Shown here piece after piece: positions 2,926 through 38,897 of a DNA stretch of 39,666 nucleotides. The notes beneath the pieces were generated by a model, which ran no database searches, had not been told where the DNA came from, and saw only the letters and a list, made by a program, of their open reading frames with translations. Source of the DNA: Methylacidiphilum caldifontis (lineage in GTDB: Bacteria > Verrucomicrobiota > Verrucomicrobiia > Methylacidiphilales > CAMAQI01). The stretch's first letter is position 1. Every line of letters begins with the position of its first letter. The stretch spans positions 1 through 39,666 of the forward strand of contig CAMAQI010000002.1 of the NCBI GenBank assembly GCA_945860255.1, in the 5' to 3' direction. The translations under genes and the position numbers were made by a program.

Positions 2926-3014
2926 TCAATTCTAAGAACTCTCCAAACACACTGTCTGAAATAAAGAAGCCCTATACTGGGTTCAATACCAGACACTTTG
3001 CACCTTTACGTATT

Positions 3015-3574: not shown

Positions 3575-3581
3575 GAGTGCT

Positions 3582-3610
3582 ACAATAGTATCACTTTAAA
3601 GAGGCGTCAA
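3582..3610 (-). promoter_or_regulatory. Sigma70-like promoter placed for a leaderless Phd/ParE transcript
   Basis: Minus strand reads TTGACG, 17 nt, TATTGT, 7 nt, ATG(3574). Confidence 0.5.
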
Positions 3611-3823
3611 AATCTTTTTGATTCAGGCTTTTTTCCAATGAAGAAAGGTCCAGTATTTTCGAATCGGCTCCCGACTTCTCCGCTGAATACCACTTAATGA
3701 GAGCGTCATACGCCCTCATTGGCACATAATCCGTCATCTCTGGATTTTCCCTATAAGTCTTCGTCACTAAATACTCGAAGTTTGGAGTACATTCTGATAT
3801 TTTTCTTCGACATTCATTCTTTT

Positions 3824-5548: not shown

Positions 5549-5642
5549 TCCATTTTTTCATTGCATACGCCTAATATCTGATGCGCTTATGTAAACTTTG
5601 TCCAATATATTTCAATTTTTTTGAAATCGAGATGTACCATGT

Positions 5643-8297: not shown

Positions 8298-8391
8298 GTT
8301 TTGAGGATGAATCCATGTAGAACCTCCGCAAGCCAAAAACTCGCCTTTTTATTCACTTGTGTTCAGATATTTAAATGTCTGAAATTCTTCT

Positions 8392-8991: not shown

Positions 8992-9013
8992 CATCGCCAT
9001 TGGCGATAGGCCA

Positions 9014-9163
9014 TCAAACCTTTTCGCGAAGCGAGTCCTCTTCACGGATTTGCTTCATTGCGGCTTTACGTTCACGTTTGGCGACCTTGCGTTTATTAAA
9101 TGGTCGCAAATGTTTCCACCATTCGGGCGGCGATGTTAGAGTATCTTTTCGAGTATGAGCCAT
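9014..9163 (-). CDS. Possible small basic protein (49 aa)
   Basis: MAHTRKDTLTSPPEWWKHLRPFNKRKVAKRERK... preceded on the minus strand by TTGTCA, 17 nt, TATGTT, 10 nt, ATG. Support is weak. Confidence 0.25.
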   Translation of the reverse strand: MAHTRKDTLTSPPEWWKHLRPFNKRKVAKRERKAAMKQIREEDSLREKV

Positions 9164-9334
9164 ACTTGTGACAAACATATATGAAAGTGAAGAAATTGAC
9201 AAGATCACCAGACAAAACTAGGTTGAATTCATGAAAGTCGTCAATGTTCAAGAGGCAAAGATCACTCACGATCAAAACTTGAACCTTATGGCGCAATCAT
9301 CCTTTGGACTTAATTTTTTTCTTTAAGTTTGATT

Positions 9335-10612
9335 TTAAAAAGATCGTGCAGCCCCCATTAAAAATTTGCGCACGTTTTGCCAGCCCACTCCTTCATGATC
9401 CTCGCGGAAATGGGTGTCTAGGCTGAGAAGCATCCGGGGGTATTCATCACCTATCGCCCGCAGAGACCTCAACTCCCTCTCCAGAGTAGATTTTTCTCCC
9501 AGCAGATAGGCCACTTGAATATAGATCCGCCGCCCCTCACGTGATGCCACAAAATCAATTTCGTTCTCCCCCCATCTTCCAACTTCAACCGAATATCCAT
9601 TCGCTTTCAAGTGAAGATAAACGACCGCTTCCAGTTGAATGCCGATATCCTGATCCCGAAATCCAAGAATGGCGTTTCGGATCCCCGCATCCGCTGCATA
9701 ATATTTTTCATGCGTTTCCAGAATTTTTCGTCCCCGAAGATCATGCCGTCGAACCCGGTGCAGCACCCGTGCATCCTCAAAATATTGAAGATATTCCAAA
9801 ATGGTGTCGACGCTCGTTTTGATTTGCTGCGAGCGTAAGTAGTCCGAGATTCGTTTGGAAGAAACCGGAGACCCCGATGTATCCAAAACATATCGAAGCA
9901 CATTTTCAAGCAATCGAACATTACGGATCGCATGGCGGCTGACCACATCCTTAAGAACCACCGTGTTGCCAATCGCCGAGAGATAATCAAACACCGCCAC
10001 ATCTTCGCGTGAAAGCGCGTGAATTCCAGGCATGCCCCCGTGGCGTAAAAATCGTGCGAAGGCCTCCTCCCCCTCCTTTTCCCCAGAAAACTCGAGAAAC
10101 TCAGGATAAGTCAAAGGGTGAACCGGAATCTCAATATAGCGACCCGTTAGCGCCGTTGCGAGCTCCCCCGAAAAAACTTTTGCATTGGACCCTGTCAAAT
10201 AAACATCGACTTCCCCTTCCTTCAGTAGCGAAGCCACCGCACGCTCCCATCCCTGAATTTCCTGAACCTCATCGACCATCAGAACCTTTTTTCCCTTGGC
10301 TTTGGAAAAGCGTTGCTTGGCCTCCCGATGTAGATCCACTCCTGTTCTGATGGAGTCCCACTCCATCTTCTCTTTGTCGACCTCCAGCAATGTCATCCCC
10401 GGATAAGCTTTCTTGAGCTCCGTAGCCCAAAGTCGTAGAAGAGTGCTCTTCCCGACACGGCGCATCCCGGTCAATATCTTGATCAGCGGCTTGAAAGCAA
10501 ACTGCCCTAACACGGGCCTATAACGATTTCGATTATGCACGAAAAAGATAATATCATGCAAATTTATTCGTGTATAGTCGAAATATCTTAAATGGAATTC
10601 CCGATAGCGCAT
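9335..10612 (-). CDS. AAA+ ATPase with DUF4143-type C-terminal domain
   Basis: GMRRVGKSTLL Walker A and LMVDEVQEIQGWERAV Walker B region. The C-terminal region is typical of the archaeal-ATPase/DUF4143 family. Confidence 0.75.
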   Translation of the reverse strand: MRYREFHLRYFDYTRINLHDIIFFVHNRNRYRPVLGQFAFKPLIKILTGMRRVGKSTLLRLWATELKKAYPGMTLLEVDKEKMEWDSIRTGVDLHREAKQRFSKAKGKKVLMVDEVQEIQGWERAVASLLKEGEVDVYLTGSNAKVFSGELATALTGRYIEIPVHPLTYPEFLEFSGEKEGEEAFARFLRHGGMPGIHALSREDVAVFDYLSAIGNTVVLKDVVSRHAIRNVRLLENVLRYVLDTSGSPVSSKRISDYLRSQQIKTSVDTILEYLQYFEDARVLHRVRRHDLRGRKILETHEKYYAADAGIRNAILGFRDQDIGIQLEAVVYLHLKANGYSVEVGRWGENEIDFVASREGRRIYIQVAYLLGEKSTLERELRSLRAIGDEYPRMLLSLDTHFREDHEGVGWQNVRKFLMGAARSF

Positions 10613-10675
10613 TTATCCACCATCGGATTGAAATACATCTCTCTTCCATGATCTCCTACTTTGTCAACTGATTCT

Positions 10676-10698
10676 AGGGACAAAAGACATCATGACAC
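10676..10698. repeat. Left copy of a perfect 23-bp inverted repeat (agggacaaaagacatcatgacac)
   Basis: Exact reverse complement of 13897-13919. Confidence 0.95.
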
Positions 10699-10718
10699 GG
10701 GGCCCCTTCCGGGGCCCC
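10699..10718 (-). terminator. GC-rich hairpin downstream of the 640-aa ORF
   Basis: ggggcccc-ttcc-ggggcccc, 15 nt past the stop codon. There is no clear U-tract on the minus strand. Confidence 0.4.
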
Positions 10719-10733
10719 TTCTAGATTGTTTCA

Positions 10734-12656
10734 TTATTTTTCACTAGTACTTGATTTTCTTCTTTTTGAATCTACGAAACACTGGGCGTACTTTTTAGCC
10801 TCGTCACAAAGATCTTGATAACGCTTTAGCTGATCCCACTTTTCAATTAATGGACTTTTGTTTGGATTCTCATTCTTAAAAAAAATTGAAAATTTCTTTT
10901 TTTCCGGAGGTTTAAAAAAATGATGGAGATATTCTGTTTTCTGAACGGTCTCTTGATACTTTTCATCTGACTTCATCTTCATCATAGCGGATCTCTTTTG
11001 AGATAAAGCAGATCGACTTGGTACCTTATAGTGGATTTGACTCCACCAATGGGGAATGTTTTGGGGTTCCATTTTTTTGAGAGTCGCCAATCCTTTTTCG
11101 GCAAAACGAAGATACGCTTCCACTTTTATAACCGCTTCATCCCAATCATATTCTCCAATGGGAGAAGGTGCTAAATGAGCTCGCAATATTTTTTTGTCCT
11201 CGTGATTTCTACCATAGGTCTTACACCACACCCCGGCGAGATCTATCGCCAATTGATCCAGTGATTCCAATGAATATTTGAATGCTCTTTGATCAACACC
11301 TTTAGAGTCATCTTTGTACTCGAGCAGCCAATTTTTATTCAAGCCCGCTAGTCGGATTTTTCTTTTACCCAGTTGTTCTAAGTCTGCCCAAAAATGTGCC
11401 GCTCTTTTCTTTTGTTCCACTGGAATATCTTGTTCTTTACACAGAAAATCGCCTTGCCACGTTTCTTGAATATATTTTTTCCAAAACGCTGAGGGGGTTT
11501 TAAACTCGGGCGGATAAGAGCATTTTTTATGGATAATCTCTCTAAAAACAGACCAAACTATTTTCTTCTCTTTAACTTCCAGTCTATCAATCGCATCAAA
11601 TAAATGGAGTCCACTTAAAGTTATCGCTTTGTCCATCGTTGGGAATTCTTCACGAATATTAAAGAGAAAATCGGAGGCCGATTCTTTTCGCTGCCACGAT
11701 TCCAAATCTAAATCCTTATTGGATGTTTCAAAAAGATAAGCGAGAAGTAAATCTCCGAGGAAAGCAGCTAAGCGATCTAGGGGCTTTAAATTCTCATTAT
11801 CTTGATGATCGAGATCAACATCATTTAAAAAATCCCTCCATTTTTCTACCTGATCATTTGATAAACTTCTTTTGATCGATTGATCTCTGGATATTTTGTT
11901 ACTTCTAAAGAGATCGCACTCCACAAGCTGGTTTTCACCGACAAGCTTCTTCCATTGCGTCAAATGATCATCATTGTTGAAAATATTTTTAAATACCGAA
12001 GCCGCTTTATTTTGAGGTTGAATGGCTTTTACGGGATTGAAATTGAACCATCGGCAAAGTCGTTGAGCCTCTTTTTTTTGTTCATCTTCATCTTTCCCAT
12101 CCAGTTCAATAAGACGAACAACAATCAATTTTTCATTCAACTTTTGGGTATCTAGATTTATGGTTGATTTTATCTTTTCCCATTCTTCCTTTAAATCCAT
12201 TAAAGTGAGTTCTCTTGATCCTCGTTCCGTCGACAAGAATTCCGCATATTCCTTGTAAGCTGTTTTATCTTCTTCCTTCTTCTTTAATGTTGAATTTTGA
12301 CTAACGAGAAGCAGTCGTCTGTTCCCACTCAGTGCCACCATTTTACCCTCAATCTCAGCAACAATGGGAGGGCCACTGCTTGCATCGGGATTGCTGTTCA
12401 CTAAAAAATGCGGTTTAAAATGCTCTACGATCGATCGATTGAGCTCGATTTCACCTTCCTTTTCGTACCAGCGGTCATTTTCAATCGGGAATTCAGGATT
12501 TCTTTCAATGGGATTTCCAGTCGTCGATAAGCTTTTTTCTAATTTGGTTGAGGCGCATATATCGCCTAAATTCATAAATTTGTAATTGTAACCAACTTTC
12601 TCAAATTCTCCTCCAGATGGCTTGCATATCAGGATTTTTGAATCGGTTTCATTCAT
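10734..12656 (-). CDS. Orphan 640-aa protein with N-terminal ParB/Srx-like domain
   Basis: NPIERNPEFP ... LNRSIVEHF ... PPIVAEIEGKMVALSGNRRLLLV matches the ParB N-terminal domain layout (GxRR box). The rest is Lys/Trp-rich and helical with no recognised family. The gene is markedly AT-rich relative to its neighbours. Confidence 0.5.
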   Translation of the reverse strand: MNETDSKILICKPSGGEFEKVGYNYKFMNLGDICASTKLEKSLSTTGNPIERNPEFPIENDRWYEKEGEIELNRSIVEHFKPHFLVNSNPDASSGPPIVAEIEGKMVALSGNRRLLLVSQNSTLKKKEEDKTAYKEYAEFLSTERGSRELTLMDLKEEWEKIKSTINLDTQKLNEKLIVVRLIELDGKDEDEQKKEAQRLCRWFNFNPVKAIQPQNKAASVFKNIFNNDDHLTQWKKLVGENQLVECDLFRSNKISRDQSIKRSLSNDQVEKWRDFLNDVDLDHQDNENLKPLDRLAAFLGDLLLAYLFETSNKDLDLESWQRKESASDFLFNIREEFPTMDKAITLSGLHLFDAIDRLEVKEKKIVWSVFREIIHKKCSYPPEFKTPSAFWKKYIQETWQGDFLCKEQDIPVEQKKRAAHFWADLEQLGKRKIRLAGLNKNWLLEYKDDSKGVDQRAFKYSLESLDQLAIDLAGVWCKTYGRNHEDKKILRAHLAPSPIGEYDWDEAVIKVEAYLRFAEKGLATLKKMEPQNIPHWWSQIHYKVPSRSALSQKRSAMMKMKSDEKYQETVQKTEYLHHFFKPPEKKKFSIFFKNENPNKSPLIEKWDQLKRYQDLCDEAKKYAQCFVDSKRRKSSTSEK

Positions 12657-12710
12657 ATTGTTTAGAGGAACTAGTTAAGAGAAATTAAATTAATAGTGGT
12701 TTTGCGTCAA
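12657..12710 (-). promoter_or_regulatory. Promoter plus bipartite repeat in the 25-nt leader of the 640-aa ORF
   Basis: Minus strand reads TTGACG (12705-12710), 17 nt, TAATTT (12682-12687), then tctcttaac-tagtt-cctctaaaca (12659-12682) ending 2 nt before the ATG. Confidence 0.45.
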
Positions 12711-12924
12711 GTTTTCTGCTCCGAAATATAAGCCCATGATGCCCTCGTATATTAATAACATGAGAGAAAATCACTATCAATTCTACCGTCCAACCTCTTT
12801 TAACGCATGATATGTGGATTTGTATTCCATCAAGAAAAGACACGTAGTCTATCCGTAAGCAAAATTGCGTAATCTCTAATCAAGGAGGCAAGTTAACAAA
12901 GTATCTCCGTAATAAAGGAATCCT

Positions 12925-13167
12925 ATGCACAAACGAACTAATTATTCTCTAAACAATATTTCTCTAAACATTCAGCTCGAATTTCAATTCATCAATGAAT
13001 TCTTTGATAACTCAATCCCAGAAATTCCCTATCTACAAATAAGTAAGAATAAGCCTACTCCTGAGAGCGAAAGAATTGAAGCAATTCGTGGTGCTAATGA
13101 AGATAGCGCTGATGCCGAATGGGAAATTTACCTAGAAAACCTATCACCTCCTGATGAGGATTATTGA
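12925..13167 (+). CDS. Small acidic protein (80 aa), paralog 1
   Basis: SD-like aagga 5 nt before the ATG. The N-terminus YSLNNISLNIQLEF is shared with the 13551 ORF. Confidence 0.4.
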   Translation: MHKRTNYSLNNISLNIQLEFQFINEFFDNSIPEIPYLQISKNKPTPESERIEAIRGANEDSADAEWEIYLENLSPPDEDY

Positions 13168-13550
13168 TAAGTCACTTATAACAAAGAGTTTAAACAATTC
13201 CACTGTTTTGTAGAACCGTTTTAAGCCCAATAAAATCCACAGTAATTACCCTCGTATATTATAAGTATGAGCAAAAAATACCTCCATATCCTTAGATTAT
13301 TAAAATATTCTTATATATACCTTTACAACAGGTACTTACGAACAATTTATTTCTATTTCGAACATGTAAAAAGCTATAATAATTTACGATTGAAATTTTT
13401 TTATCCTTTTTTGGCAACTCAGTCAATTTCCTTAATTTTTCCTGTAATACTTATTGATATGAACAAAAACGTTATCAATCAACATTTGCGTAATCTTATA
13501 CCAGTGAGACATCTCATCACCATTGGTATCTAAAAGAAAAAAGGAATAAT

Positions 13551-13829
13551 ATGATCAATATAAAAATTAAAGTATATTCTCTTAACTCATTTCCTCTTAA
13601 CATTCAGATGGATTTATTCAGTGATGATCCTCTAATAGTGACTACTCCAATTGTTAGAAAAAAATCACAAAAAAAACGATATAATAACAGAAAAGAGCAA
13701 TTGTACGCAAATCCTGACGAGTATTTCGTGAGCGATCTATTGCGAGAAGGCCACATTAAATGTCCTCGTCTTGAAAGGTTCTTGTCTGCTAAAATTCAAT
13801 CTCTAAGACAATCCAAAAAGATTTCGTAA
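13551..13829 (+). CDS. Small basic protein (92 aa), paralog 2
   Basis: Same SD spacing as paralog 1. The N-terminus YSLNSFPLNIQMDLF is shared with the 12925 ORF. Confidence 0.4.
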   Translation: MINIKIKVYSLNSFPLNIQMDLFSDDPLIVTTPIVRKKSQKKRYNNRKEQLYANPDEYFVSDLLREGHIKCPRLERFLSAKIQSLRQSKKIS

Positions 13830-13896
13830 TTGTTTGAATAAGTTTAAACACTCTTTTAACTTATTCAATGTCACAACTTTTATCGTAAAAGGCGCT

Positions 13897-13919
13897 GTGT
13901 CATGATGTCTTTTGTCCCT
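13897..13919. repeat. Right copy of the perfect 23-bp inverted repeat
   Basis: gtgtcatgatgtcttttgtccct is the exact reverse complement of 10676-10698. Confidence 0.95.
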
Positions 13920-14007
13920 GCCAGCCCATTCCTTTAATAATCAATCTTTTATTAAAGAAACTTGCTATTTTCTTTAATAAGAATATTCTTATTAAAGGGT
14001 TTATCGT

Positions 14008-15168
14008 ATGATTCGATCTGAAACAGGTAATTACAGCATTTCCACTTTAGGGGGAGAGACCGTAAAAGCATTTATTCCTTTATCGCTTCCTCCTGTCCCT
14101 CCCTTGGATCTGACGGGATCTCGCCAAAGGCTACTCGAACGCGCGACGATTGCCGTCGGACGACTCGACAGTGTCGCCACATTGTTACCTGATCCGGATC
14201 TTTTTCTTTATGCGTATGTTCGTCGGGAAGCGGTTCTCTCCTCACAAATTGAAGGAACCCAATCCTCCCTGTCGGATCTTTTACTTTTTGAAATCGATGA
14301 AGTACCTGGGGTTCCTTTTGATGATGTGGTTGAAGTCTCCAATTACATCGCTGCGTTAAACCACGGGATGAATCGCCTCAAAGAAGGTTTTCCCTTGAGT
14401 ACCCGTCTTCTTCGAGAGATGCATGCTCAACTCATGTCCAGGGGTCGTGGAAGTGATAAGAATCCCGGGGAGTTTCGTCGAAGCCAAAATTGGATCGGTG
14501 GCACAAGACCGGGTAATGCACACTTTGTTCCCCCTCCACCCCATGAAGTTGATCGATGTATGGGCGATCTTGAAAAATTTCTTCATGATGATCACTCCAC
14601 TCCACTCCTCCTCAAAGCGGCTCTTGCCCATGTTCAATTTGAAACCATCCATCCCTTCCTCGATGGGAATGGACGATTGGGACGGCTCTTGATTGCTTTG
14701 CTTCTTCATGAAGGAGGCCTTCTTTCTCTTCCACTTCTTTATTTAAGTCTTTATCTCAAAAAGCATCGGAATATTTATTACGAAAAACTGGACATCGTCC
14801 GCACTCAAGGGGATTGGGAAAGCTGGTTAGATTTCTTTCTCGAAGGGGTTGAAGAAACTGCATTGGGAGCGGTTGAAACTGTTCGACGTTTGGGAGCACT
14901 TTTTGAAAAGGATCGAAAACAGGTGCAAGAAACCAAACGTCTTGCATCCAACATCCTTCGCGTCTTTCACGAATTTGAAAAACGCCCCATATTGAATTTA
15001 AAACAGATCTGCCGTGATCATCGAATGACTTTTCCAACAGCCACAAAAGCGGTTTCATCCCTCATCGAAATGGGAATCATCCGAGAAATGACCGGTCAAA
15101 AACGAAATCGATTTTTCGTTTATGATGCTTATCTCAAAATTCTGAATGAAGGGGGAGATCCTTTGTAA
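14008..15168 (+). CDS. Fic-family protein (AMPylase-type) with N-terminal inhibitory motif and C-terminal wHTH-like region
   Basis: Catalytic HPFLDGNGRLGRLL (HPFx[D/E]GNGRxxR). SSQIEG matches the (S/T)xxxE(G/N) autoinhibition motif. Confidence 0.9.
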   Translation: MIRSETGNYSISTLGGETVKAFIPLSLPPVPPLDLTGSRQRLLERATIAVGRLDSVATLLPDPDLFLYAYVRREAVLSSQIEGTQSSLSDLLLFEIDEVPGVPFDDVVEVSNYIAALNHGMNRLKEGFPLSTRLLREMHAQLMSRGRGSDKNPGEFRRSQNWIGGTRPGNAHFVPPPPHEVDRCMGDLEKFLHDDHSTPLLLKAALAHVQFETIHPFLDGNGRLGRLLIALLLHEGGLLSLPLLYLSLYLKKHRNIYYEKLDIVRTQGDWESWLDFFLEGVEETALGAVETVRRLGALFEKDRKQVQETKRLASNILRVFHEFEKRPILNLKQICRDHRMTFPTATKAVSSLIEMGIIREMTGQKRNRFFVYDAYLKILNEGGDPL

Positions 15169-15169
15169 A

Positions 15170-16264
15170 CTACGCCGTGCGCATCGGCATGATCACGTAC
15201 AGGAAGGGCTTGCTGTACTTGATGACGCCGGGGCTGAGTTCGTCGATGAAGTCGAAGAAGATTTCGTCGGAGTCAATGTGTCTCAAGGGATCTTGTAAAT
15301 AGGTCGGATTGAAGGCGATGGAGAATTCTTTCCCTTTATAATTCACAGGGATCGATTCTTTGGCCTCTCCGACTTCGGGGGTGTTGGACATGATGTCCAA
15401 ATTGTTTTGGCTGAAACTCAAGCGAATCGAATTTGTTTTATCGTTCGATAACAAGGAGACACGACGGGTGGCATTAAGGAGCAATTCGCGCTCGATGATG
15501 ATTCGATCCTTGGCCTCGGGGGGAATGACTTGTTTGTAGTTCGGATATTTTCCTTCGACGAGTTTCGAGACGAGGAAGGTCTCACCAAGATCAAAAGCGA
15601 TCTGATTGTCTGAGAGCGAAATAGTTAACGGTTCCTCTTGTCCCAAAATCCGTTGGAGTTCGTTGACCGCTTTTGTCGGAAGAATCGCATCGGTTTCATT
15701 TCCTTTGGCAAATTCCATCTCATGCTCAACAAGGGCGAGACGACGTCCATCGGTGGCGACCATCGTTAATTTGGTGTCATGGAAACTGAGGAATACACCG
15801 TTGAGAACGTAACGACTTTCGTCGTTGGAGATCGCATAAGCGGTCCGGCGAAGCATATCGCGGAAGGTCCCTTGGGTCATTTTGAACTGACGAGCGCCTT
15901 CGGTTTTTGGGAAGGCAGGAAAATCTTCTGCAGGAAGTCCAAGAATTTTGAAATAAGACGAAGCTGCTCGGATCGTCGCTTGATTCTCATCATTGACTTC
16001 AAGCGTGAGTTCGACTGCGGGAAGTTCACGGATGATACTAAAGAAACGTTTTGCTGGAAGTGTCGTTGTTCCGGGTTTAATGACTTCGCAAGGAATCGAG
16101 GCCCGAATTCCCATATCGAGATCGGTGGTCGAGATGGTCAGCTTGCCATTCTCTGCGACCAAGAGGGCATTTCCGAGGATGGGGAGGGTTGTGCGTGAGG
16201 CAACAACGTTTTGGACCATTTGTAGGCCTGCAATTAAAGCTTCTTTCCCAATGACACATTTCAT
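15170..16264 (-). CDS. dnaN: DNA polymerase III beta sliding clamp
   Basis: 364 aa. RTTLPILGNALLVAENGKLTISTTDLDMGI and the overall three-domain length are typical. Confidence 0.95.
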   Translation of the reverse strand: MKCVIGKEALIAGLQMVQNVVASRTTLPILGNALLVAENGKLTISTTDLDMGIRASIPCEVIKPGTTTLPAKRFFSIIRELPAVELTLEVNDENQATIRAASSYFKILGLPAEDFPAFPKTEGARQFKMTQGTFRDMLRRTAYAISNDESRYVLNGVFLSFHDTKLTMVATDGRRLALVEHEMEFAKGNETDAILPTKAVNELQRILGQEEPLTISLSDNQIAFDLGETFLVSKLVEGKYPNYKQVIPPEAKDRIIIERELLLNATRRVSLLSNDKTNSIRLSFSQNNLDIMSNTPEVGEAKESIPVNYKGKEFSIAFNPTYLQDPLRHIDSDEIFFDFIDELSPGVIKYSKPFLYVIMPMRTA

Positions 16265-16667: not shown

Positions 16668-16704
16668 CCTTTCCTCTGCGTTCCTCTGTGCGCTCTGCGG
16701 TTAA
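16668..16704. repeat. Solo right arm of the TTAACC-type element (A1)
   Basis: cctctgcgttcctctgtgcgctctgcggttaa: three phased ctctgcg heptads ending in GGTTAA. No left arm was found. Confidence 0.7.
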
Positions 16705-17728: not shown

Positions 17729-17872
17729 TTAACCGCCGAGGGCGCAGAGTAACGCAGAGGAAAAACTCCTAAAACTCTCTGCAAGACTGGAATGCAGGAA
17801 AAAGAATGTTTTGGGTTTTAAAAACAAAAAATAAGAATTTACTCTGCGTATCTCTGCGCCCTCTGCGGTTAA
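17729..17872. repeat. 144-bp palindromic TTAACC element (A2), MITE-like
   Basis: ttaaccgccgagggcgcagagtaacgcagagg ... actctgcgtatctctgcgccctctgcggttaa. Each arm has three cgcagag heptads. Confidence 0.85.
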
Positions 17873-18628: not shown

Positions 18629-18783
18629 TTAACCGCAGAGGAAATCCCTTTTTTAGTTTTTAAAACCCAAAACATTTTTTTTCCTGGATTCCAGCCTTCC
18701 TGAGAGTTTTAGGAGTTTTTCCTCTGCGTTACTTCTTGTCCGCCGTAGTCATTCGACGGAGGAGGATGCCTCCTCTGCGGTTA
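18629..18783. repeat. 155-bp TTAACC element (A3), inverted copy of A2
   Basis: The ~85-nt core gtttttaaaacccaaaacatt...gagagttttaggagtttttcctctgcgttac matches the reverse complement of A2 with few mismatches. Termini are ttaaccgcagagg / cctctgcggttaa. Confidence 0.85.
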
Positions 18784-19938: not shown

Positions 19939-21257
19939 GTCGTAAGGTTCTTTTTTTATCTAATGACCATTCCGTTCCTTTTGCGAAGACGACGGAGTTT
20001 ATGGCCTCCGCCTGTGAGCGATTAGGTCATCAGGCGGTGGTGCGTGATACCTTCCCTTCTCGGATTCAGCGGTCGATGTTGGGGGATAAATCGCAAGTTT
20101 TGCCGATGAAACGCTTAGCTGAGCATTGGACGGAGTTTTTAGAGGATTTACAAATTGATACCGTGTTAGGACTCGATCTCTTTTGGTTGTTTTATCCGGA
20201 ACCGTTTTTTAATTCAACTTCAGTGAAGACCATTGGATCGATCTGGTTTGATGATTTTCGCAGCTGGATTACCTATCCGACCAACGTTTGGTTTTCGAGT
20301 AGTGAGATGAAATTTCAGTCGATCATTCGTCATTCCAAGGTTTGGCATGTTTTTTATGGGGAGAGCATGGCGCAAGAGGCCCGGCTTTTTGGAGTCGATC
20401 AGCAATTGAGTTCACGATTGGCGGCCCCGGCGGAGTTTTTAAAGCAGAAGTTTCCTTGTGAGATCAAAGATAAGGCGGTCTTTATTGGGAATCCCGGTTT
20501 TCGCGGTGCGCCGCATGAGGATGCCATTGATCTCATGAAAGCGGGGGGGGATTTGGTCGCTTTGCGGATGATGAGTCGCGATCATTTGTTACGTGCGGGG
20601 GATGAGGCGGTGCAGAAGTGGTTTCGGTTGGAACCGCAGACTCGGGAGTTACTCGCTGTGGCGATGGAGGTGAAGGCGAAGAATCCGTTTGCTCCCTCTT
20701 TAGAACTTTTGAAAATGGCGGGGGAGATCTATCCGAAGGCCTTTGCTTTTGCGAACGATCATGGGATTTTGCTCGATTTCACGATGTTGGTGAAGTTGGT
20801 GACTCGTTATGATCGACCTGCGCTTGTCATGAGACTTTATGAGAAGGGTTTAGTCGATGTTTTTTCAAACTCTCCGGAGTGGGAACCGTATGGAGTGAAG
20901 GCGGGAAAGAATATTAATTTGGGAGAGCTTCCGGAGTATTATCAGAAATATACCGTGCATTTGAATGGGGCGAATCCGTTGCGGGATGCGACGGGGAATG
21001 AGAAACTTTTTGAGATTGCGGCCTCTGGGCGGGTTTCAGTGAATTTAAGGAGTCCGGATGTCACGAGCTGTTATCCGGAGCCGGAGATCGTTGTGGGGGA
21101 TACCTTGGAGGAGTTGGAGACCAAGACCTGTGAGCTGTTGGCGAATCCTGAGGAGGCCTTGGCGAGAGGGGCGATGGCGAAGCAACGGACGGCACGGGAG
21201 CATTTGTGGGAGCATCGGTTGAAGGTGATTTTGAAGGAATTTGAGAAGAGGGATTAA
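19935..21257 (+). CDS. Putative CgeB-like/GT1-type glycosyltransferase (paralog 2)
   Basis: ATGA overlap with the previous ORF. GNEKLFEIAASGRVSVN and C-terminal HLWEHRLKVIL resemble the CgeB/DUF3880-type family. Confidence 0.5.
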   Translation: MSRKVLFLSNDHSVPFAKTTEFMASACERLGHQAVVRDTFPSRIQRSMLGDKSQVLPMKRLAEHWTEFLEDLQIDTVLGLDLFWLFYPEPFFNSTSVKTIGSIWFDDFRSWITYPTNVWFSSSEMKFQSIIRHSKVWHVFYGESMAQEARLFGVDQQLSSRLAAPAEFLKQKFPCEIKDKAVFIGNPGFRGAPHEDAIDLMKAGGDLVALRMMSRDHLLRAGDEAVQKWFRLEPQTRELLAVAMEVKAKNPFAPSLELLKMAGEIYPKAFAFANDHGILLDFTMLVKLVTRYDRPALVMRLYEKGLVDVFSNSPEWEPYGVKAGKNINLGELPEYYQKYTVHLNGANPLRDATGNEKLFEIAASGRVSVNLRSPDVTSCYPEPEIVVGDTLEELETKTCELLANPEEALARGAMAKQRTAREHLWEHRLKVILKEFEKRD

Positions 21258-21355
21258 CCGCTAAAGGGAAACGCAACCCCGACAGTGAGTACGGGGCAGG
21301 AAAACGCCAAGTGAAGAGGGAATAAACCACTGATCTACATTAATTTTCGCTGATT
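21250..21355 (+). repeat. E-type repeat (E1): TTAACC left arm + conserved 30-mer hairpin + AACCAC tri-heptad arm
   Basis: gggattaaccgc .. caaccccgacagtgagtacggggcagg .. aaccactgatctacattaattttcgctgatt. The upstream gene's TAA lies inside TTAACC, and the element abuts the serpin ATG. Confidence 0.85.
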
Positions 21356-22564: not shown

Positions 22565-22697
22565 CAAAACGAAATATCTTATTTTTAATGAAAGAAATGC
22601 GTTTAAACCCGTATTTTATAAGTGTTCATCAGTGCGGATTAGTGGTTTATGTTTTCTTTAGAGTTTATTTTTTGGGAATTTATAGCTACTCTAAGTC

Positions 22698-25261: not shown

Positions 25262-25393
25262 AGAGATTTACCGCCAAGGAAGAGACAAATAAGGCTAAGG
25301 AAATATATCCATTAAACCACTGATATGCATTTATTTGGTCTTATCAATTTATGAATTGATTTAATTCGTGTTCATTTGTGTCTATTCGTGGTT
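25262..25393. repeat. E-type partial repeat (E4) plus an opposed solo tri-heptad arm
   Basis: agagatttaccgccaagg..ttaaaccactgatatgcatttatttgg (25262-25338) and attcgtgttcatttgtgtctattcgtggttt (25366-25393). Confidence 0.7.
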
Positions 25394-26690: not shown

Positions 26691-26796
26691 GAGGGATTAA
26701 CCGCCAAGTTAAAGGCAACCCCGACAATGAGTACGGGGCAGGAAAAGGCCAATGCTGCATGACTAATCACTGATCTGCACTGATTTTCGCTGATTT
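26691..26796 (+). repeat. E-type repeat (E2)
   Basis: gagggattaaccgccaag .. caaccccgacaatgagtacggggcagg .. aatcactgatctgcactgattttcgctgattt. Starts 14 nt after the lpxK stop and ends 11 nt before the next ORF. Confidence 0.85.
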
Positions 26797-27488: not shown

Positions 27489-27493
27489 AATGG

Positions 27494-27685
27494 AGAGGGA
27501 TTAACCGCCACTCCCTGCGTGATAACGCAATTAAAAATAGGAAACCATTTGGAGAGCCGAGGGTAGGCAACTAGAAGCTGGGGTGAGAAGGGGCTTCGTA
27601 GGAAAAGTCAACCCCGACAATGAGTCGAGGCAGGTAAACGGCATGTAAAGAGAGTATAACCACTCATTTGCACTTATTTAGCTCA
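27494..27685 (+). repeat. E-type repeat (E3) with ~85-bp internal insertion
   Basis: gagggattaaccgccact ... caaccccgacaatgagtcgaggcagg ... ataaccactcatttgcacttattta. Confidence 0.75.
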
Positions 27686-27709
27686 TAAAATCTTAAACCT
27701 AGGTCTTTT

Positions 27710-30630: not shown

Positions 30631-31233
30631 TTATTCACCGAGGCCGACGGAGCCAAGGCCGCCGCCTTTTTCTTTGTAGACGGTATCGATCGCGAGTCCT
30701 GCCATGAGGAGGAGGAGGGCGTTTTTCGGAGCATGGATCGTGACCATGTAGCTGTCGGCGGTTGTGAAGAGTTCTTTGAGCGTGCTTTCCCATTTTTTGC
30801 TGACATTGCCGAGTTCTTGTCCTTCTTTATCGAGAAACTTGAAATTCCAGCCGATCCAGTTTCCTTTGACCTCTGCAATTTGATTTTCGTTGGCATCAAA
30901 GACGTTGAATCCGCCACCAATACTGATCCATTTCGACAGAAAGTGACCGACCTTTTGTTCTTCGCTATTGAGGATCAAGACTTTGCTTCTCCAGAAGGTA
31001 AAACCGCGATAGAGAATGGCCGAGGGCTTTGATTGTCCCTCTTCCGTGATTTCGATGCGGGTAGAAATAATGCGGTTTCCCAGCACCATCGTCAGGAGTT
31101 GTTTCCACCACGGTTTGATCTCCTTAGCAACGGCGATCTTTTGTCCGGTCCTCGGATCAAGGATGTCGTAGGTATCTTTGATTTTGAGAAGGCCGACTTG
31201 TTCCCGAATGAGGTATTGGGTGAGATTAAACAT
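30631..31233 (-). CDS. Phospholipid scramblase / LURP-one-related (Tubby-like fold) family protein
   Basis: LIREQVGLLKIKDTYDILDPRTGQKIAVAKE and a repeated beta-strand pattern resemble bacterial scramblase-family proteins. Confidence 0.5.
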   Translation of the reverse strand: MFNLTQYLIREQVGLLKIKDTYDILDPRTGQKIAVAKEIKPWWKQLLTMVLGNRIISTRIEITEEGQSKPSAILYRGFTFWRSKVLILNSEEQKVGHFLSKWISIGGGFNVFDANENQIAEVKGNWIGWNFKFLDKEGQELGNVSKKWESTLKELFTTADSYMVTIHAPKNALLLLMAGLAIDTVYKEKGGGLGSVGLGE

Positions 31234-31508
31234 AGATTAGAGGTAGTCGATAAGGGGGGAGTCGTCAAATCCTCCAATCCCCAAGCCGGTTTTGTTTTAG
31301 GCGCTTATCCTAGATGAAATATTTTAAGCTGAGAAGGATGCGGTGTTTGCTTGGGGATGAAGTGCTATCGCACGGGGATGTTGGTAAGGGAGGAAAAGGG
31401 CTTAGAGAGGTTTAATTTTCGTGTCCATTGGTGTCCATTCGTGGTTGGGAATTTTGTTTTCACTTTTTCTCTCTCTAGTCGAGTGAGGAGGAATTGACTA
31501 CTCCAAAA
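31234..31508 (+). repeat. B-type composite repeat, copy 1 (~275 bp)
   Basis: Near-identical to 31959-32226. Contains stem tccccaagc (31278-31286) / gcttgggga (31349-31357), a solo tri-heptad arm (31418-31446) and hairpin tagtcga-N11-tcgacta. Confidence 0.9.
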
Positions 31509-31510
31509 GA

Positions 31511-31795
31511 ATGAAGGTATGGAAAGTGGTTTACCGCATAGAAGCACTGGTCGATATTGAAAATTTCGTGGTCTATTGTGAGAGATCTGATGCTTCGCAA
31601 AAATTTACAAATGTGATGATGGATCAAATTGCATCGCTTCAACGAAATCCCTATCGCTTTCGTTCAGTTTCGAATAGATCTGGTTATCGTCGGATGCTTT
31701 TTCGGCCATTCCAAGTTTTTTATGAGATCGATGAAACCACACAAACGGTGAGAGTCATGCGTGTTTGGCACTCAGCAAGGGACCTTTGGGAGTAG
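31511..31795 (+). CDS. parE: ParE/RelE-family toxin
   Basis: VVYRIEALVDIENFVVY ... GYRRMLFRPFQVFYEIDETTQTVRVMRVWHSARD follows the ParE pattern. Confidence 0.7.
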   Translation: MKVWKVVYRIEALVDIENFVVYCERSDASQKFTNVMMDQIASLQRNPYRFRSVSNRSGYRRMLFRPFQVFYEIDETTQTVRVMRVWHSARDLWE

Positions 31796-31954
31796 TTTTA
31801 GAGGGACGGATTTTTTGAAAAGAGTGGCAATTCTTTGTCGTGCCACATGTTCTGGAATATCGTGGGTAAGACCCACTCCCTGAATCGCTTCATCCAAAGC
31901 AGCTAAAGCAGCAGGGGAAATTTCAACGGATTTTTGGGAAGCGATTTTGGACAT
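31772..31954 (-). CDS. Small antitoxin-like protein, convergent with and overlapping the ParE-like gene
   Basis: 60 aa with ISPAALAALDEAIQG..DIPEHVARQRIATLF. Canonical promoter reads TTGACG, 17 nt, TACAAT, 6 nt, ATG(31954). Confidence 0.5.
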   Translation of the reverse strand: MSKIASQKSVEISPAALAALDEAIQGVGLTHDIPEHVARQRIATLFKKSVPLKLLPKVPC

Positions 31955-31958
31955 GAGA

Positions 31959-32226
31959 AGATTGTAGTCGTTGGGAGGGAAGTCGTCAAATCTCCAATCC
32001 CCAAGCGGGTTTTGTTTTAGACTCTTATCCTAGATGAAATATTTTAAGGTGAGAACGATGCGGTGTTTGCTTGGGGATGAAGTGCTGTCGCACGTGGATA
32101 ACGGGAGTAAATAGAGTCTAAGAAGGTTTTTAATTTTCGTGTCAATTCGTGTTCATTCGTGGTTGGGATTTTTTGGATCCACGTTTTCTCTCTCTAGTCG
32201 AGTGAGGAGGAATCGACTACTGCAAA
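31959..32226 (+). repeat. B-type composite repeat, copy 2
   Basis: Stem 31998-32006 / 32069-32077, tri-heptad arm 32136-32164. Aligns with B1 over its whole length. Confidence 0.9.
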
Positions 32227-32252
32227 TCACATGAACCTAAAAAAGCAGTTGG

Positions 32253-32387
32253 AACCACGGATATCACGGATCACACGGATTTCAAACAGTTTAGGGGAAA
32301 TTGTACGTTCACCTTGTGGGTGAAGGAAAAAACAGAGGTTAATTTTCATAAATTCTTCCATCCGTGTTATCTGTGTTATCCGTGGTT
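32253..32387. repeat. 135-bp palindromic AACCAC element (C1)
   Basis: aaccacggatatcacggatcacacggat ... atccgtgttatctgtgttatccgtggtt, with an internal hairpin ttcacc-ttgtg-ggtgaa. Confidence 0.9.
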
Positions 32388-32498
32388 AAATGGATTGCCG
32401 ATTTTAGGATGAAACTTTGCCCACATGCTCATTTAAATCATGGAAAAGCAGAGGGCCTCCCTCTATTGACAACCAAAGTGGTTGTGTTACGGTTTTTT

Positions 32499-32738
32499 AT
32501 GGTTTCAATGACGTTGAAAGATATTCCCGTGCCCGTGCATCAGGCTTTGAAATTAAGAGCGAAGGAACATGGACGGAGTCTAAATAAGGAGGCACTGGCT
32601 TGTTTGGAAAGTATTCTCCTTCCAAGGAAAGTGGATACCGATCAGTTACTAACCGAGATCCGGCGGCATCGAGAGGGGCTTCCCGGAAAATTATCCGATC
32701 AACTTCTAGAAGAGGCTCGTACGAGTGGACGTCCATGA
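32499..32738 (+). CDS. VapB-type antitoxin (Arc/FitA-like RHH)
   Basis: MTLKDIPVPVHQALKLRAKEHGRSLNKEALACLE. ATGA overlap with the PIN gene. Promoter reads TTGACA (32466-32471), 16 nt, TACGGT, 5 nt, ATG. Confidence 0.75.
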   Translation: MVSMTLKDIPVPVHQALKLRAKEHGRSLNKEALACLESILLPRKVDTDQLLTEIRRHREGLPGKLSDQLLEEARTSGRP

Positions 32739-33133
32739 TCGTTGCCGATTCTAATCTGATCGCCTATTTATTAATTCCAGGAGAGAAAAGCCTTTTGGCA
32801 GAGTCGATTTTCCTCAAAGATTCGGAATGGGCAGTCCCCCTTCTTTGTCGTTCTGAGATCCGAAATATCGTAACCCTTTATATGCGTCAGCAACAGATGA
32901 CGCTGACACAGGCGAAAGCGACTTTGGAAAAGGCGAAACTGGTTTGGAAAGAAAGGGAGTTTGCGATTCCCTCTGGAGAGATTTTAGAGCTGACCTCGCA
33001 GTATAAGGTTTCGGCGTATGATGCCGAGTTTGTGGTGCTTGCCAAAATGTTGAATATTCCTCTGCTGACTTTTGATCAGCCCCTCCGACGGATTTTTCCG
33101 ATGATTGCAGTTGACCCGATGACTTTTGCCTAA
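32735..33133 (+). CDS. vapC: PIN-domain toxin (VapC family)
   Basis: MIVADSNLIAYLL ... SAYDAEFVVLAKMLNIPLLTFDQ. Confidence 0.8.
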   Translation: MIVADSNLIAYLLIPGEKSLLAESIFLKDSEWAVPLLCRSEIRNIVTLYMRQQQMTLTQAKATLEKAKLVWKEREFAIPSGEILELTSQYKVSAYDAEFVVLAKMLNIPLLTFDQPLRRIFPMIAVDPMTFA

Positions 33134-33238
33134 ATCCCCAAGCCGGTTTTGTTTTAGGCTCTTATCCTAGATGAAATATTTTAGGGCGAGAAGGATGCGG
33201 TGTTTGCTTGGGGATGAAGTGCTGTCGCACGGGGATGG
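33133..33238 (+). repeat. B-type repeat, partial copy 3 (palindrome module only)
   Basis: Stem 33135-33143 / 33206-33214. Fills the whole gap between the convergent VapC and DUF1648 genes. Confidence 0.9.
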
Positions 33239-34437: not shown

Positions 34438-34522
34438 AAAATAATCAAGCCGGATTCGTGTAATATTATGCGTTTGGGAAATATTTGAGGAAGAGAGTAG
34501 TTCCGTCAGGGCTTGATTATGA
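34438..34522 (+). repeat. D-type palindromic repeat, copy 1
   Basis: Stem ataatcaagcc (34441-34451) / ggcttgattat (34510-34520) around a ~58-nt loop. Homologous to the B palindrome module. Confidence 0.85.
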
Positions 34523-34594
34523 TTGGGATCGGTTTTGTGTTTTTTTCGGCTCGGTCCTCTTGTCCCATGATCAGGCATCTACTATTAGAATATT

Positions 34595-35040: not shown

Positions 35041-35153
35041 GAATTGTAGTCGAAGGGCGTTTAGTCGTCAAATAATCAAGCCGGGTTTGTGTAATATTTT
35101 GCGTTTGGGAAAAAGTCGAGGAAGAGAGTAGTTCCGTCAGGGCTTGATTATGT
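35041..35153 (+). repeat. D-type repeat, copy 2 (with the promoter module shared with B repeats)
   Basis: attgtagtcg..agtcgtcaaat followed by stem 35072-35082 / 35141-35151. Confidence 0.85.
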
Positions 35154-35236
35154 TATGAATTGGCGGGGAGATTTACCCCTTATTTTCACTGATCTGCGCT
35201 TATAAAACCAGATTTGAACCTAGAGAAACCAGTTTG

Positions 35237-35264
35237 AACCACGGATATCACGGATCATACGGAT
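35237..35264 (+). repeat. Solo left arm of a C1-type element (C2)
   Basis: aaccacggatatcacggatcatacggat differs from the C1 left arm at 1 position. Confidence 0.8.
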
Positions 35265-35296: not shown

Positions 35297-35432
35297 AACC
35301 ACAGAATACACAGAACACACTGAATTTTAAGGGTTTATAAAAAACAAGGAATTCACCTGCAGGGTGAACGAAAAAGCCAACTCTTTTTTTTCATAACATT
35401 CTCTTTCTGTGTGTTTTGTGTATTCTGTGGTT
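35297..35432. repeat. 136-bp palindromic AACCAC element (C3), heptad variant
   Basis: aaccacagaatacacagaacacac ... gtgtgttttgtgtattctgtggtt. Internal hairpin ttcacc-tgcag-ggtgaa as in C1. Confidence 0.9.
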
Positions 35433-37674: not shown

Positions 37675-37719
37675 GGAAGATTGGAAGGATAAAGGATGAT
37701 AGGGAAAAAGTCGAAGAGA

Positions 37720-37909
37720 TTAACCGCAGAGGACGCCGAGTTTCGCAGAGGAATACAAATTTATTTTTACCCGAGAGGGCTCTAGCTTCATGCAAGGACT
37801 GACGGAGAAATACAACAGTCGCCGAGTTTTCAAATGTATTTTGGATTTCAAACAAAATCCTGGTGTCATTTGGTATTCCTTAGCGTTCCTCAGCGCCCTC
37901 TGCGGTTAA
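37720..37909. repeat. 190-bp palindromic TTAACC element (A4)
   Basis: ttaaccgcagaggacgccgagtttcgcagagg ... cttagcgttcctcagcgccctctgcggttaa. Confidence 0.85.
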
Positions 37910-38693: not shown

Positions 38694-38897
38694 CTGCCAA
38701 AAATACAGGTTTCTCCCGCAGCGGCGCAGCGAGGCAGCGAAATACAAAAAGAGCGACTATGGGGATCAAAATTCTCTACGTAGGAAGATATTTATTCTTA
38801 AAACCACAGAAAATGACTTTGGACTTTATCCATTGGATCGGTTTTAAATCCATGTAAGTAAATAGCTTCTTGTCTTTAGCTGTATCGCTGCGGTTAA
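38690..38897. repeat. 208-bp palindromic TTAAC element (A5), heptad variant
   Basis: ttaactgcc..cccgcagcggcgcagcgaggcagcg ... agctgtatcgctgcggttaa. The PIN gene's TAA stop lies inside the left terminus. Confidence 0.75.

Follow-up and report, generated by a model that had tools for sequence, protein, structure and literature searches.

Triple-heptad DNA repeats in a Methylacidiphilum caldifontis contig and their association with GxxExxY genes

The described systems closest to the elements considered here are the repetitive extragenic palindromic (REP) and REPIN elements, which occur with a REP-associated tyrosine transposase, RAYT (PMC5581495, PMC8049555). Our subject is element C1, at positions 32253-32387 of a 39,666-nucleotide stretch of Methylacidiphilum caldifontis DNA (contig CAMAQI010000002.1, assembly GCA_945860255.1; hereafter the window), together with its constituent arms and their relatives elsewhere, an arm being a short anchor, AACC in the window, followed by three phased copies of one heptad. 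Like REP elements, arms are short extragenic repeats, tens of them per replicon, which occur singly or as inverted doublets; several subfamilies share a genome, copies persist long at orthologous sites, and a low-copy nuclease-type gene is itself bracketed by two inverted repeats. Unlike in REP/REPIN-RAYT, the gene flanked by arms belongs to the PD-(D/E)XK nuclease family PF13366/TIGR04256 (GxxExxY) and not to the HUH/Y1 transposases (PF01797). Furthermore, an arm consists of three direct heptads behind AACC or NACC whereas a REP is a small imperfect palindrome with a 5' GTAG, and arm words are common to phyla, domains and phages whereas REPs are lineage-specific.

Two other classes of mobile sequence invite comparison. 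With miniature inverted-repeat transposable elements (MITEs) and insertion sequences (IS), the two-armed elements C1, C3, A2 and A4 of the window have in common a short non-coding core enclosed by terminal inverted repeats, a longer gene-bearing form between the same repeats, and multiple near-identical copies per genome; in contrast to these, arms often stand alone, they come without a known transposase family, no duplication of a target site was seen, and between genomes only the arm words, not the element, are conserved. Integron attC sites resemble arms in being imperfect inverted repeats that end in GTT, in lying between small cassettes rich in toxin-antitoxin (TA) genes, and in having gene-less and gene-bearing alleles which differ by a segment between directly repeated sites. 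Identity with attC was nevertheless rejected, there being no intI and no fit to the core sites. Pfam scans of 30 open reading frames (ORFs) of the window returned no integrase or intI, and none recurs in arm loci; the left ends TTGGAAC and GATTAAC miss RYYYAAC, only some right ends (such as GTTAAAT in C1) fit GTTRRRY, the cassettes have no uniform orientation, and attC lacks the triple-word architecture.

Phased operator arrays, such as the TGGGN x3 boxes of MraZ (10-bp period), the 7-bp repeats of PhoB/OmpR (10-11 bp) and the heptads of the omega repressor, are single regulatory sites serving one regulon with a known regulator. In these arrays too a short word recurs three times, about one helical turn apart, and is recognised upstream of promoters by an oligomer, whereas arms are dispersed, form inverted pairs, cross domains and are linked to a nuclease gene. 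Lastly, ORF-bearing intervening sequences (IVS) of 23S rRNA hold a small ORF within long inverted repeats, the product being a four-helix-bundle IVS protein; arm units were seen without rRNA context, and their ORF encodes GxxExxY instead. As the arm system fails the defining tests of REP/RAYT, MITE/IS, attC and Rfam, it should be assigned to none of them. An earlier reading of the sequence (the original prediction) could not place the family among REP/BIME, ERIC, Correia, BOX and RUP, and it is in fact none of these.

Architecture of C1 and the genes between arms

The element that prompted the original prediction is laid out as follows.

32253 to 32387, no strand assigned: C1, two-armed element with left arm 32253-32280, right arm 32360-32387 and a 79-nt loop

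The two arms, of 28 nt each, are 89% complementary. The left one reads ttgg-AACC-ACGGAT-AT-CACGGAT-CA-CACGGAT, that is, AACC with three copies of CACGGAT at 9/9 spacing, and the right one, 3' of the loop, reads ATCCGTG-TT-ATCTGTG-TT-ATCCGTGGTT-aaa. Within the loop lies the inner hairpin TTCACC-N5-GGTGAA, common to C1 and C3 as had been predicted. Folded as single-stranded DNA, C1 attains -32.4 kcal/mol, compared with -13.2 +/- 2.4 for dinucleotide shuffles (z = -8.0).

An architecture of AACC and three heptads per arm, 9-10 nt apart, was the core of the original prediction. Scanning both strands for AACC and, behind it, three copies of a single heptad (at most one mismatch, 9-10 nt spacing) recovered 14 arms in the window, where 300 Markov-1 simulations gave a mean of 0.013 and a maximum of 1. 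Without the anchor, 16 triple phased heptads were detected, 14 of them being the AACC/GGTT-anchored arms; the remaining two are a degenerate arm of E2 (26767) and a match at 25388 that is not an arm. In total the window holds 14 clean arms and about seven degenerate ones, all intergenic and confined to 16.6-39 kb. Heptads differ by a mean Hamming distance of 0.69 inside an arm and 0.61 between partner arms, as against 2.36 between different arms, so that they are, as predicted, more alike within an element than between elements. Each arm is formally a three-copy tandem repeat of period 9-10, and identical linkers are modestly over-represented within arms; an origin of the arms by chance or slippage, with no common descent or function, is nonetheless already refuted and keeps practically no probability, given the excess over simulation, the recurrence of the same anchor and words across phyla with heptads fixed and linkers mostly different, and the specific tie to one gene family.

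This tie emerged when ORFs near arms were clustered all-against-all in arm-selected loci (120 loci, 852 kb). One small family stood out, its stop-to-stop ORFs running through the arms: NCBIfam TIGR04256 (GxxExxY), equivalent here to Pfam PF13366 (PDDEXK_3). Four GxxExxY genes occur in the 852 kb fetched by arm pattern, all abutting arms, and one of them (locus L095) lies behind a B-type CACGAAT arm at 10/10 spacing, the same type as the B arms of the window. No transposase or recombinase family was found near arms in the 120 loci, GxxExxY being the sole recurrent arm-bracketed cargo. As candidates for another recurrent neighbour, the ORF clusters offered only generic families (ABC ATPases, histidine kinases), and in phage loci only phage structural and replication genes clustered.

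An unbiased sample was provided by 80 GxxExxY loci from metagenomes, containing 71 genes with full flanks. A triple-heptad arm lies within 130 nt of 62/71 (87%) of these genes, compared with 9/750 (1.2%) control windows from the same loci. In the main layout an AACC-first arm, the GxxExxY gene and a GGTT-last (inverted) arm follow one another (35 cases by a strict detector), while four units have a direct layout with both arms in the same orientation. In 28 of 40 units the two arms agree in their consensus heptad (2000 shuffles gave a mean of 5.4 and a maximum of 13), and in 37 of the 40 they agree in spacing pattern. The predicted co-variation of all six heptads of an element thus holds as a strong tendency and not as a rule, hybrid elements being exemplified by L008 (CGCAGAG/CACAGAG) and L047 (CACAAAG/CGCAGAG).

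Many predicted GxxExxY N-termini are read-through translations of arms (PQRTQRTQ, NRRGRRGRR, NHEGHQGHQE); the distance from arm to ATG varies, and some arms lie inside the coding N-terminus. In one clade (P0003-P0037) the annotated start is upstream of the arm and two heptads are apparently translated (MNLSPQSTQSFAEL...), reflecting either real coding or a systematic miscall. Among cultured organisms, Bacteroides finegoldii carries the unit between radA and a FAD-dependent gene (ggttCACC-ACAGAG-GA-CGCAGAG-GA-CACGGAG ... CTCTGTG-AC-CTCTGTG-TC-CTCTGTGGTG). Further annotated examples come from Bernardetia sp. and from Gemmatirosa kalamazoonensis, where a gene-less hairpin follows the GxxExxY gene.

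The function of PF13366 is listed as 'Unknown', with a range of Prokaryota and Viruses and multiple transfers (PMC3424549). The protein, of about 125 amino acids, has a PD-(D/E)XK fold of the RecB/Cas4/lambda-exonuclease-like branch, with the nuclease motif set on an alpha-beta-beta-beta-alpha-beta core. Residues E58, D88, E98 and K100 (the D...ExK motif) as well as Q112 and Y116 (QxxxY) are invariant in a 28-member alignment. The AlphaFold2 model (pLDDT 92.6) finds its best PDB neighbours by Foldseek in Cas4 SSO0001, LHK-Exo and lambda exonuclease, with E-values from 2e-4; a sequence search of the PDB returned no solved structure matching the protein. Judging from this alignment and model, the intact catalytic motif looks like that of an active nuclease. 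Homologues form at least 8000 clusters in many phyla, including human-gut Bacteroides, and the range of PF13366 in Bacteria, Archaea and viruses mirrors that of the arms.

An element of the window can be related directly to such a gene.

37722 to 37907, no strand assigned: A4, two-armed A-type element with arms 37722-37750 and 37879-37907; between gidA/mnmG and a divergent TA pair

Two contigs of a sister species, L338 (NCBI GCA_945883905.1) and L339 (a Logan contig), are about 85% identical to the window in nucleotide sequence; their GidA belongs to the 90% cluster that also includes the GidA of the window, and they carry a PF13366 gene in the spacer upstream of gidA that is orthologous to the A4 spacer. 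The order in L339 is left arm, A4-homologous loop, right arm R1, 61 nt, GxxExxY, 17 nt, right arm R2, 48 nt and the gidA ATG; in the window it is left arm, loop, one right arm and the same 48 nt to gidA. Window positions 37718-37769 align by BLAST to both R1 and R2, and the alleles differ by about 536 nt with a 52-nt direct repeat at the bounds, the difference from L338/L339 being the gene segment and not the whole element. The gene-less A4 is thus the same element as the nuclease-bearing one, and the alleles reflect loss of the gene through recombination of the repeated arms or, alternatively, gain of a module made up of arm and gene. Other junctions between the window and L338, in a variable TA island, also lie at arms.

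Such alleles, differing by a segment between direct repeats of one arm, could also be expected if arms were integron-like sites at which an unlinked recombinase exchanges TA and nuclease cassettes, or polar Chi-like signals for a RecB-type machine. The rearrangement junctions, the bracketing of mazEF by A2 and A3, the arm end in GTT (as in the attC core), the strand consistency of 92% among phage solo arms and the RecB-like fold of the associated protein would suit this proposal, which we nevertheless regard as very unlikely: neither the 120 arm loci nor the window has an integrase or recombinase near arms, the attC inverse core RYYYAAC is lacking, cassettes are not co-oriented, the three direct words are unlike attC, and Chi sites are single short words that also occur within genes.

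Conserved words and their spread

In a logo of 125 arms, information is found only at the fixed pattern positions, with a weak T preference just outside AACC and purine-rich linkers. Anchor and heptad positions stay fixed while linkers, loops and flanks drift, both among distant taxa and among orthologous copies. The orthologous arms of L007 and L119, for instance, are identical at 21/21 heptad positions while both linkers changed from CC to CT, and those of L013 and L090 agree at 20/21 heptad positions but at 1/4 linker positions, their loops being unalignable. Partner arms of gene-flanking units are complementary at 92% of heptad and 67% of linker positions, where chance would give 37%. Among gene-less two-armed elements of different phyla the heptads match, the linkers are often non-complementary, and the spacing can differ between partner arms. 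The base before ACC is itself variable (CACC 36, AACC 29, TACC 14), and by-eye inspection showed that most GxxExxY genes scored as armless do have arms, anchored by CACC, TACC or AAC. The true anchor is therefore ACC and not AACC.

Arms might alternatively act in RNA, their stems serving as terminators, mRNA stabilisers or RNase III substrates, in the manner of the stems around ORF-bearing IVS of 23S rRNA, and spreading as MITE-like hairpins. The favourable fold of C1, the spacing and linker complementarity shared by partner arms and a weak T-rich run after GGTT are what such a role would lead one to expect. An Rfam 15 scan, however, gave no match at gathering score, the hairpins reaching only sub-threshold miRNA-precursor models (E 0.06-0.6), which means simply that they are long, and a terminator scan does not select arms. 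The original prediction had also proposed G:U pairs in a plus-strand transcript. On the sense strand of 37 gene-bearing units, heptad columns contain 20 mismatches of G:U type and 18 of A:C type, and linkers 12 and 15 respectively, an outcome that offers no excess of G:U and does not sustain the proposal. Many arms are, moreover, solo and unable to pair, partner arms can differ in spacing and heptad, and the conserved positions correspond to words, not to pairing. We therefore give an RNA-level role only a slight probability. Taken together, the conservation of words, the drift of linkers and loops, the lack of a G:U excess and the lack of an Rfam match point to selection on words in DNA, not on an RNA helix.

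The words recur far beyond the Verrucomicrobiota, as a search of other genomes, proposed with the original prediction, made plain. In a collection with one genome per species, the A-type pattern AACC-GCAGAG-NN-CGCAGAG-NN-CGCAGAG was found in at least 120 stretches, compared with a hand-estimated chance expectation of about 2. The matches fall in Cyanobacteria (Microcoleus, Richelia, Chamaesiphon, Pseudanabaena), Acidobacteriota, Planctomycetota, Verrucomicrobiota, Chloroflexota, Gemmatimonadota, Alpha-, Beta-, Gamma-, Delta- and Zetaproteobacteria, Myxococcota, Bdellovibrionota, Nitrospirota, Elusimicrobia, Spirochaetes, Thermotogae, Lentisphaerae, Latescibacterota and Poribacteria, and among archaea in Methanosarcinales, Methanosaeta, ANME-1 and Bathyarchaeota. 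The A-arm loci include 34 inverted pairs, and hairpins of 70-140 nt occur in many taxa. In the cultured Gemmatirosa kalamazoonensis the A-type hairpin occupies at least 40 and at least 39 places on two megaplasmids, so that each has about 40 or more arm places against one GxxExxY match.

B- and C-type arms number at least 270 in 1.04 Mb of IMG/VR sequence (CACGGAT at least 146, CACGAAT at least 49), on contigs of genuine phages, which have clusters of portal, terminase and DnaB genes. Phage solo arms often form a GGTT-spacer-AACC composite, of a polarity opposite to that of the hairpin elements. Full-text literature searches on the arm sequences, on the GxxExxY family and on REPIN/RAYT-plus-nuclease systems found no description of these repeats, and the family apparently represents a very widespread, undescribed set of 28-base DNA modules extending from bacteria to archaea to phages.

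Two side observations concern individual contigs. Phage contig L223 has five composites (2920-3010, 6575-6640, 9780-9860, 10595-10680 and 10840-10945), intergenic and on one strand, each with a full three-heptad arm followed by a weaker two-heptad arm, anchors facing inward. In Microcoleus, L007 has at 4220-4320 a 100-nt insertion relative to its orthologue L119, made of contiguous heptamers (GCAGAAG/GAAGAAG) of the cyanobacterial short tandemly repeated repetitive (STRR) kind, which are distinct from the spaced heptads of arms.

Elements of the window and their surroundings

Besides C1 and A4, the window contains the following elements.

16674 to 16702, minus strand: A1, solo A-type arm CGCAGAG, CACAGAG, CGCAGAG at 9/10 spacing; between dnaN and a 276-amino-acid ORF
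17731 to 17870, no strand assigned: A2, two-armed A-type element with arms 17731-17759 and 17842-17870; upstream of mazE
18631 to 18782, no strand assigned: A3, a rearranged copy of A2 in opposite orientation with a single heptad per end; downstream of mazF
21243 to 21355, plus strand: E1 composite, comprising a degenerate A-like arm TTAACCGCTAAAGGGAAACGCAA, a hairpin CCCCG..CGGGG and an arm AACC-ACTGAT..; ends at a serpin ATG
22618 to 22647, minus strand: solo E-type arm CACTAAT, CACTGAT, CACTTAT at 10/10 spacing; 51 nt upstream of a family 2 glycosyltransferase (GT2) gene
25315 to 25345, plus strand: degenerate E-type arm, AACCACTGATATGCATTTATTTGGTCTTATC
25364 to 25393, minus strand: solo B-type arm, CACGAAT at 10/10 spacing; GGTT end 63 nt upstream of the lpxK start codon
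26686 to 26795, plus strand: E2 composite, a copy of E1 (87-91% identity across segments); between lpxK and a SIMPL gene
27490 to 27688, plus strand: E3 composite, a third and more diverged copy, with arm AACC-ACTCAT..CACTTAT.. at 27658-27688
31417 to 31446, minus strand: B1, solo arm CACGAAT/CACCAAT/CACGAAA at 10/10 spacing; 65 nt upstream of a ParE-family gene
32135 to 32164, minus strand: B2, solo arm, a copy of B1 within a duplicated unit of ~720 bp
35175 to 35207, plus strand: degenerate E-like arm, ACCCCTTATTTTCACTGATCTGCGCTTAT; its L338 counterpart sits at a rearrangement junction
35237 to 35264, plus strand: C2, solo arm CACGGAT, CACGGAT, TACGGAT
35297 to 35432, no strand assigned: C3, two-armed element with heptad CACAGAA and arms 35297-35324 and 35405-35432
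38716 to 38895, no strand assigned: A5, degenerate; on the left GCAGCG x3 at period 8 without AACC, on the right CGCTGCGGTTAA only, with a single heptad

The heptads originally assigned to these subfamilies hold: CGCAGAG in A (spacing 9/10), CACGGAT in C1 and C2 (9/9), CACAGAA in C3, CACGAAT in B (10/10 in B1, B2 and 25364-25393) and CACTGAT-like heptads in E (10/10 in 22618-22647 and the E elements). Other details had to be qualified. AACC is indeed the start of the arms, but the bases preceding it, thought to be TT or GG throughout, may also be TG, CC or AA. Helical phasing applies to part of the set, two-armed elements being spaced 9/9 or 9/10 and solo B and E arms 10/10, so that only the latter fit the helical repeat. 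Of the series A2-A5, taken to be two-armed with complementary heptads, A2 and A4 conform, whereas A3 has a single heptad per end and A5 is degenerate, with a period of 8, no left AACC and a single right heptad. The E composites, like A3 and A5, count as degenerate members of the family.

Elements of one subfamily resemble one another beyond their arms. C1, C2 and C3 have in common a leader, AACCTA..CAGTTKG, upstream of AACC and outside the arm; the loop of A3, in reverse complement, is identical to that of A2 at 78/84 positions, the two bracketing mazEF; and the E composite is present in three copies. Loops and leaders held in common are what ordinary copying would yield, and same-subfamily elements within a genome are therefore copies of one another, with only the words persisting across genomes. 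Identical linkers within an arm are modestly over-represented (36/176 against 21.7 expected), so some unit-wise homogenisation occurs, though its part is minor. The unusual generation mechanism once entertained is unneeded, ordinary copying being sufficient. In the E composites the inner hairpin CCCCGACA(G/A)TGAGTACGGGG is conserved (21264-21310, 26706-26752, 27599-27645), and the two arms around it are in direct, not inverted, orientation.

The setting is chromosomal (dnaN, mnmG/gidA, lpxK, serpin, glycosyltransferases), with MazEF, ParE, PhdYeFM-PIN and FitA-PIN modules scattered among these genes, and the strain contigs L208, L211 and L213 are collinear with the window. As dnaN and gidA lie nearby, an oriC/DnaA-box reading was considered and rejected: the words do not match TTATCCACA, and arms occur in hundreds of unrelated loci. 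The 276-amino-acid ORF between A1 and A2 was likewise rejected as a RAYT-like cognate gene, having a signal-peptide-like N-terminus (secreted), low complexity and no Pfam match; the arms flanking its L005 orthologue reflect only arm-rich spacers. Around that orthologue, in the dnaN spacer, L005 (1000-1300, 2115-2518) and L002 (758-1161) carry a different two-armed element, with TTAAC-ATGGAT.. ACCGAT.. words in L005 at a period of about 11 nt (the dnaN of this strain is 93% identical), which may be a further subfamily with an AAC anchor.

The first 16.5 kb of the window, with SNF2 helicase, AAA_15, DUF4143 and Fic genes, have no arms. Strains with identical DnaN (L002, L003, L005, L006) show a hypervariable region on the 3' side of dnaN (1-15170 in the window), L002 having ResIII, SLFN/AlbA_2 and an N6_N4 methyltransferase there and L003 Tn7-like TniQ/TniB, and this arm-free region looks like a defence-island hotspot. 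Within it, 36-nt inverted repeats (10676-10711 and 13884-13919, also 13931-13998; 86% complementary), adjoined by an AT-rich palindrome of 30+30 nt, surround a 3.2-kb segment with a 640-amino-acid ORF of no known family and three small ORFs. A 25-nt end sequence of these repeats recurs at a strain-specific junction in L006, and they are possibly the boundary of another mobile or defence element.

Other repeats lie nearer to the arms. The duplicated unit of ~720 bp is evident from 31243-31507 and 31964-32226, and the repeats here also take in 33129-33236 and 35046-35074. A 108-nt sequence recurs as three copies of 93-94% identity; each copy opens with GTAGTCG..GTCGTCAAATC, holding a promoter-like TTGACG-17-TACAAT on the minus strand, and these copies may be shared regulatory heads of TA cassettes. 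A 94-nt direct repeat (34439-34532 and 35070-35163, 88% identity) lies on either side of the ParE cassette by C2 and C3.

A proposed partnership of nuclease and repeats

Building on the architecture, the taxonomic breadth, the word-level conservation, the association with GxxExxY genes, the gene-bearing A4 orthologue and the copying within genomes, and arguing by analogy with REPIN/RAYT, we infer a partnership in which arms would be the recognition sites of the GxxExxY nuclease. We regard this as the best explanation, though its chances are somewhat short of even. The full unit would consist of an arm (NACC and three heptads), the nuclease gene and an inverted arm, of which the hairpins C1, C3, A2 and A4 and the solo arms A1, B, C2 and E would be non-autonomous derivatives, much as REPINs and REP singlets accompany a RAYT or MITEs an IS. 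A nuclease oligomer might read the three heptads of an arm with one subunit or dimer per heptad, subfamilies with different heptads going with different GxxExxY paralogues. By cutting or recombining at the ACC/GGT anchor, the enzyme could cause elements to spread, convert or reshuffle, and gene-less forms could arise by gene loss between repeated arms, as between L338/L339 and the window. The oligomer-binding sites of the original prediction would thereby gain a candidate protein, and the conservation pattern fits protein-recognition words; binding itself, like cleavage and mobility, is presumed here.

Several observations weigh against this partnership. Firstly, the window encodes no GxxExxY gene, nor do the phage contigs with their 270 B- and C-type arms, and the whole viral collection yielded a single relative. 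Arms are thus maintained where no nuclease is encoded in cis, and phages put up with them or even favour them. Secondly, the protein comes without a separate DNA-binding domain, and its covariation with the heptads is weak. Protein identity and heptad distance are correlated at a Spearman coefficient of -0.28, which none of 2000 Mantel permutations equalled, but the effect is small (58% against 56% identity) and could reflect shared ancestry alone, leaving the predicted difference in specificity between subfamilies weakly supported. Thirdly, mobility would be slow at best, since arms are found at orthologous sites in sequences 13-15% diverged. Neither related strain and species contigs nor a Bacteroides/Phocaeicola comparison gave a clean pair of filled and empty sites for a whole element. 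The flanks of 24 two-armed elements likewise yielded no target-site duplication, showing only the palindrome extension TT-AACC...GGTT-AA; duplication of a TTAA or TA target was rejected accordingly, the base before ACC being variable and the apparent TTAA a palindrome extension.

Finally, the placement of arms hints at a transcription-linked or polar role. Eight start codons in the window and L339 (those of gidA, mazE, lpxK, ParE, GT2, the genes at 18838 and 38956, and the GxxExxY gene of L339) have the GGTT end of an arm 48-65 nt upstream, and this end is followed by a T-rich tract and a recurring TTGNCG-N17 motif. In phage loci, 79/86 (92%) of solo arms lie on one strand within their locus, a consistency that is robust even though gene orientation relative to these arms is noisy, antisense ORFs being hard to exclude in GC-rich DNA. 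Together with the phage loci devoid of GxxExxY, these features keep alive the polar Chi-like proposal and another, in which a host factor other than GxxExxY binds the arms as cis-regulatory or insulator modules. Three phased words close before a promoter would then serve as operator or as upstream activating array, comparable to those of MraZ, OmpR/PhoB or the omega repressor, and the nuclease gene would be merely a frequent cargo or neighbour.

Such a regulatory function would also accommodate the 10/10 spacing of solo arms, which matches the helical repeat, the intergenic position and single orientation of many phage solo arms, and the stability of arms at orthologous sites. We consider it distinctly unlikely, however, as no single regulator is known across Bacteria, Archaea and phages, a sigma-70 scan calls no promoter beside the arms in 31200-32600, and arm-to-ATG distances at GxxExxY genes vary, to the point that some arms fall within the coding N-terminus. 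It would, furthermore, leave unexplained why 87% of GxxExxY genes are bracketed, and on both sides. Specific candidates, namely CsrA sites (GGA), Shine-Dalgarno-like standby sites and extracytoplasmic function sigma promoters (AAC-N16-CGT), were discarded by sequence reasoning only, each fitting at most one subfamily and none explaining the archaea.

The nuclease-plus-repeat partnership can be taken further. Arms and GxxExxY genes might constitute an unrecognised class of selfish or genome-organising elements in Bacteria, Archaea and phages, in which a minimal RecB/Cas4-like nuclease serves as recombinase or homing enzyme for its own triple-word sites, a PD-(D/E)XK counterpart of REPIN-RAYT that seeds promoter-proximal repeats, reshuffles TA cassettes and has been co-opted by phages. 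This larger proposal we hold to be somewhat unlikely. Whatever its fate, the link between GxxExxY and arms gives the nuclease family a first testable function, and the arms make an attractive natural model for modular protein-DNA recognition because their words are conserved while their linkers are free. If the partnership is true, it would be the second, independent case, after RAYT/REPIN, of a nuclease accompanied by a population of cognate repeats within the genome, in this instance crossing domains and extending to phages. It would also explain an annotation artefact, the repetitive N-termini (PQRTQRTQ, NHEGHEGHE) ascribed to small proteins, as well as many of the intergenic hairpins of Planctomycetota, Verrucomicrobiota, Acidobacteriota, Cyanobacteria, Chloroflexota and methanogens.

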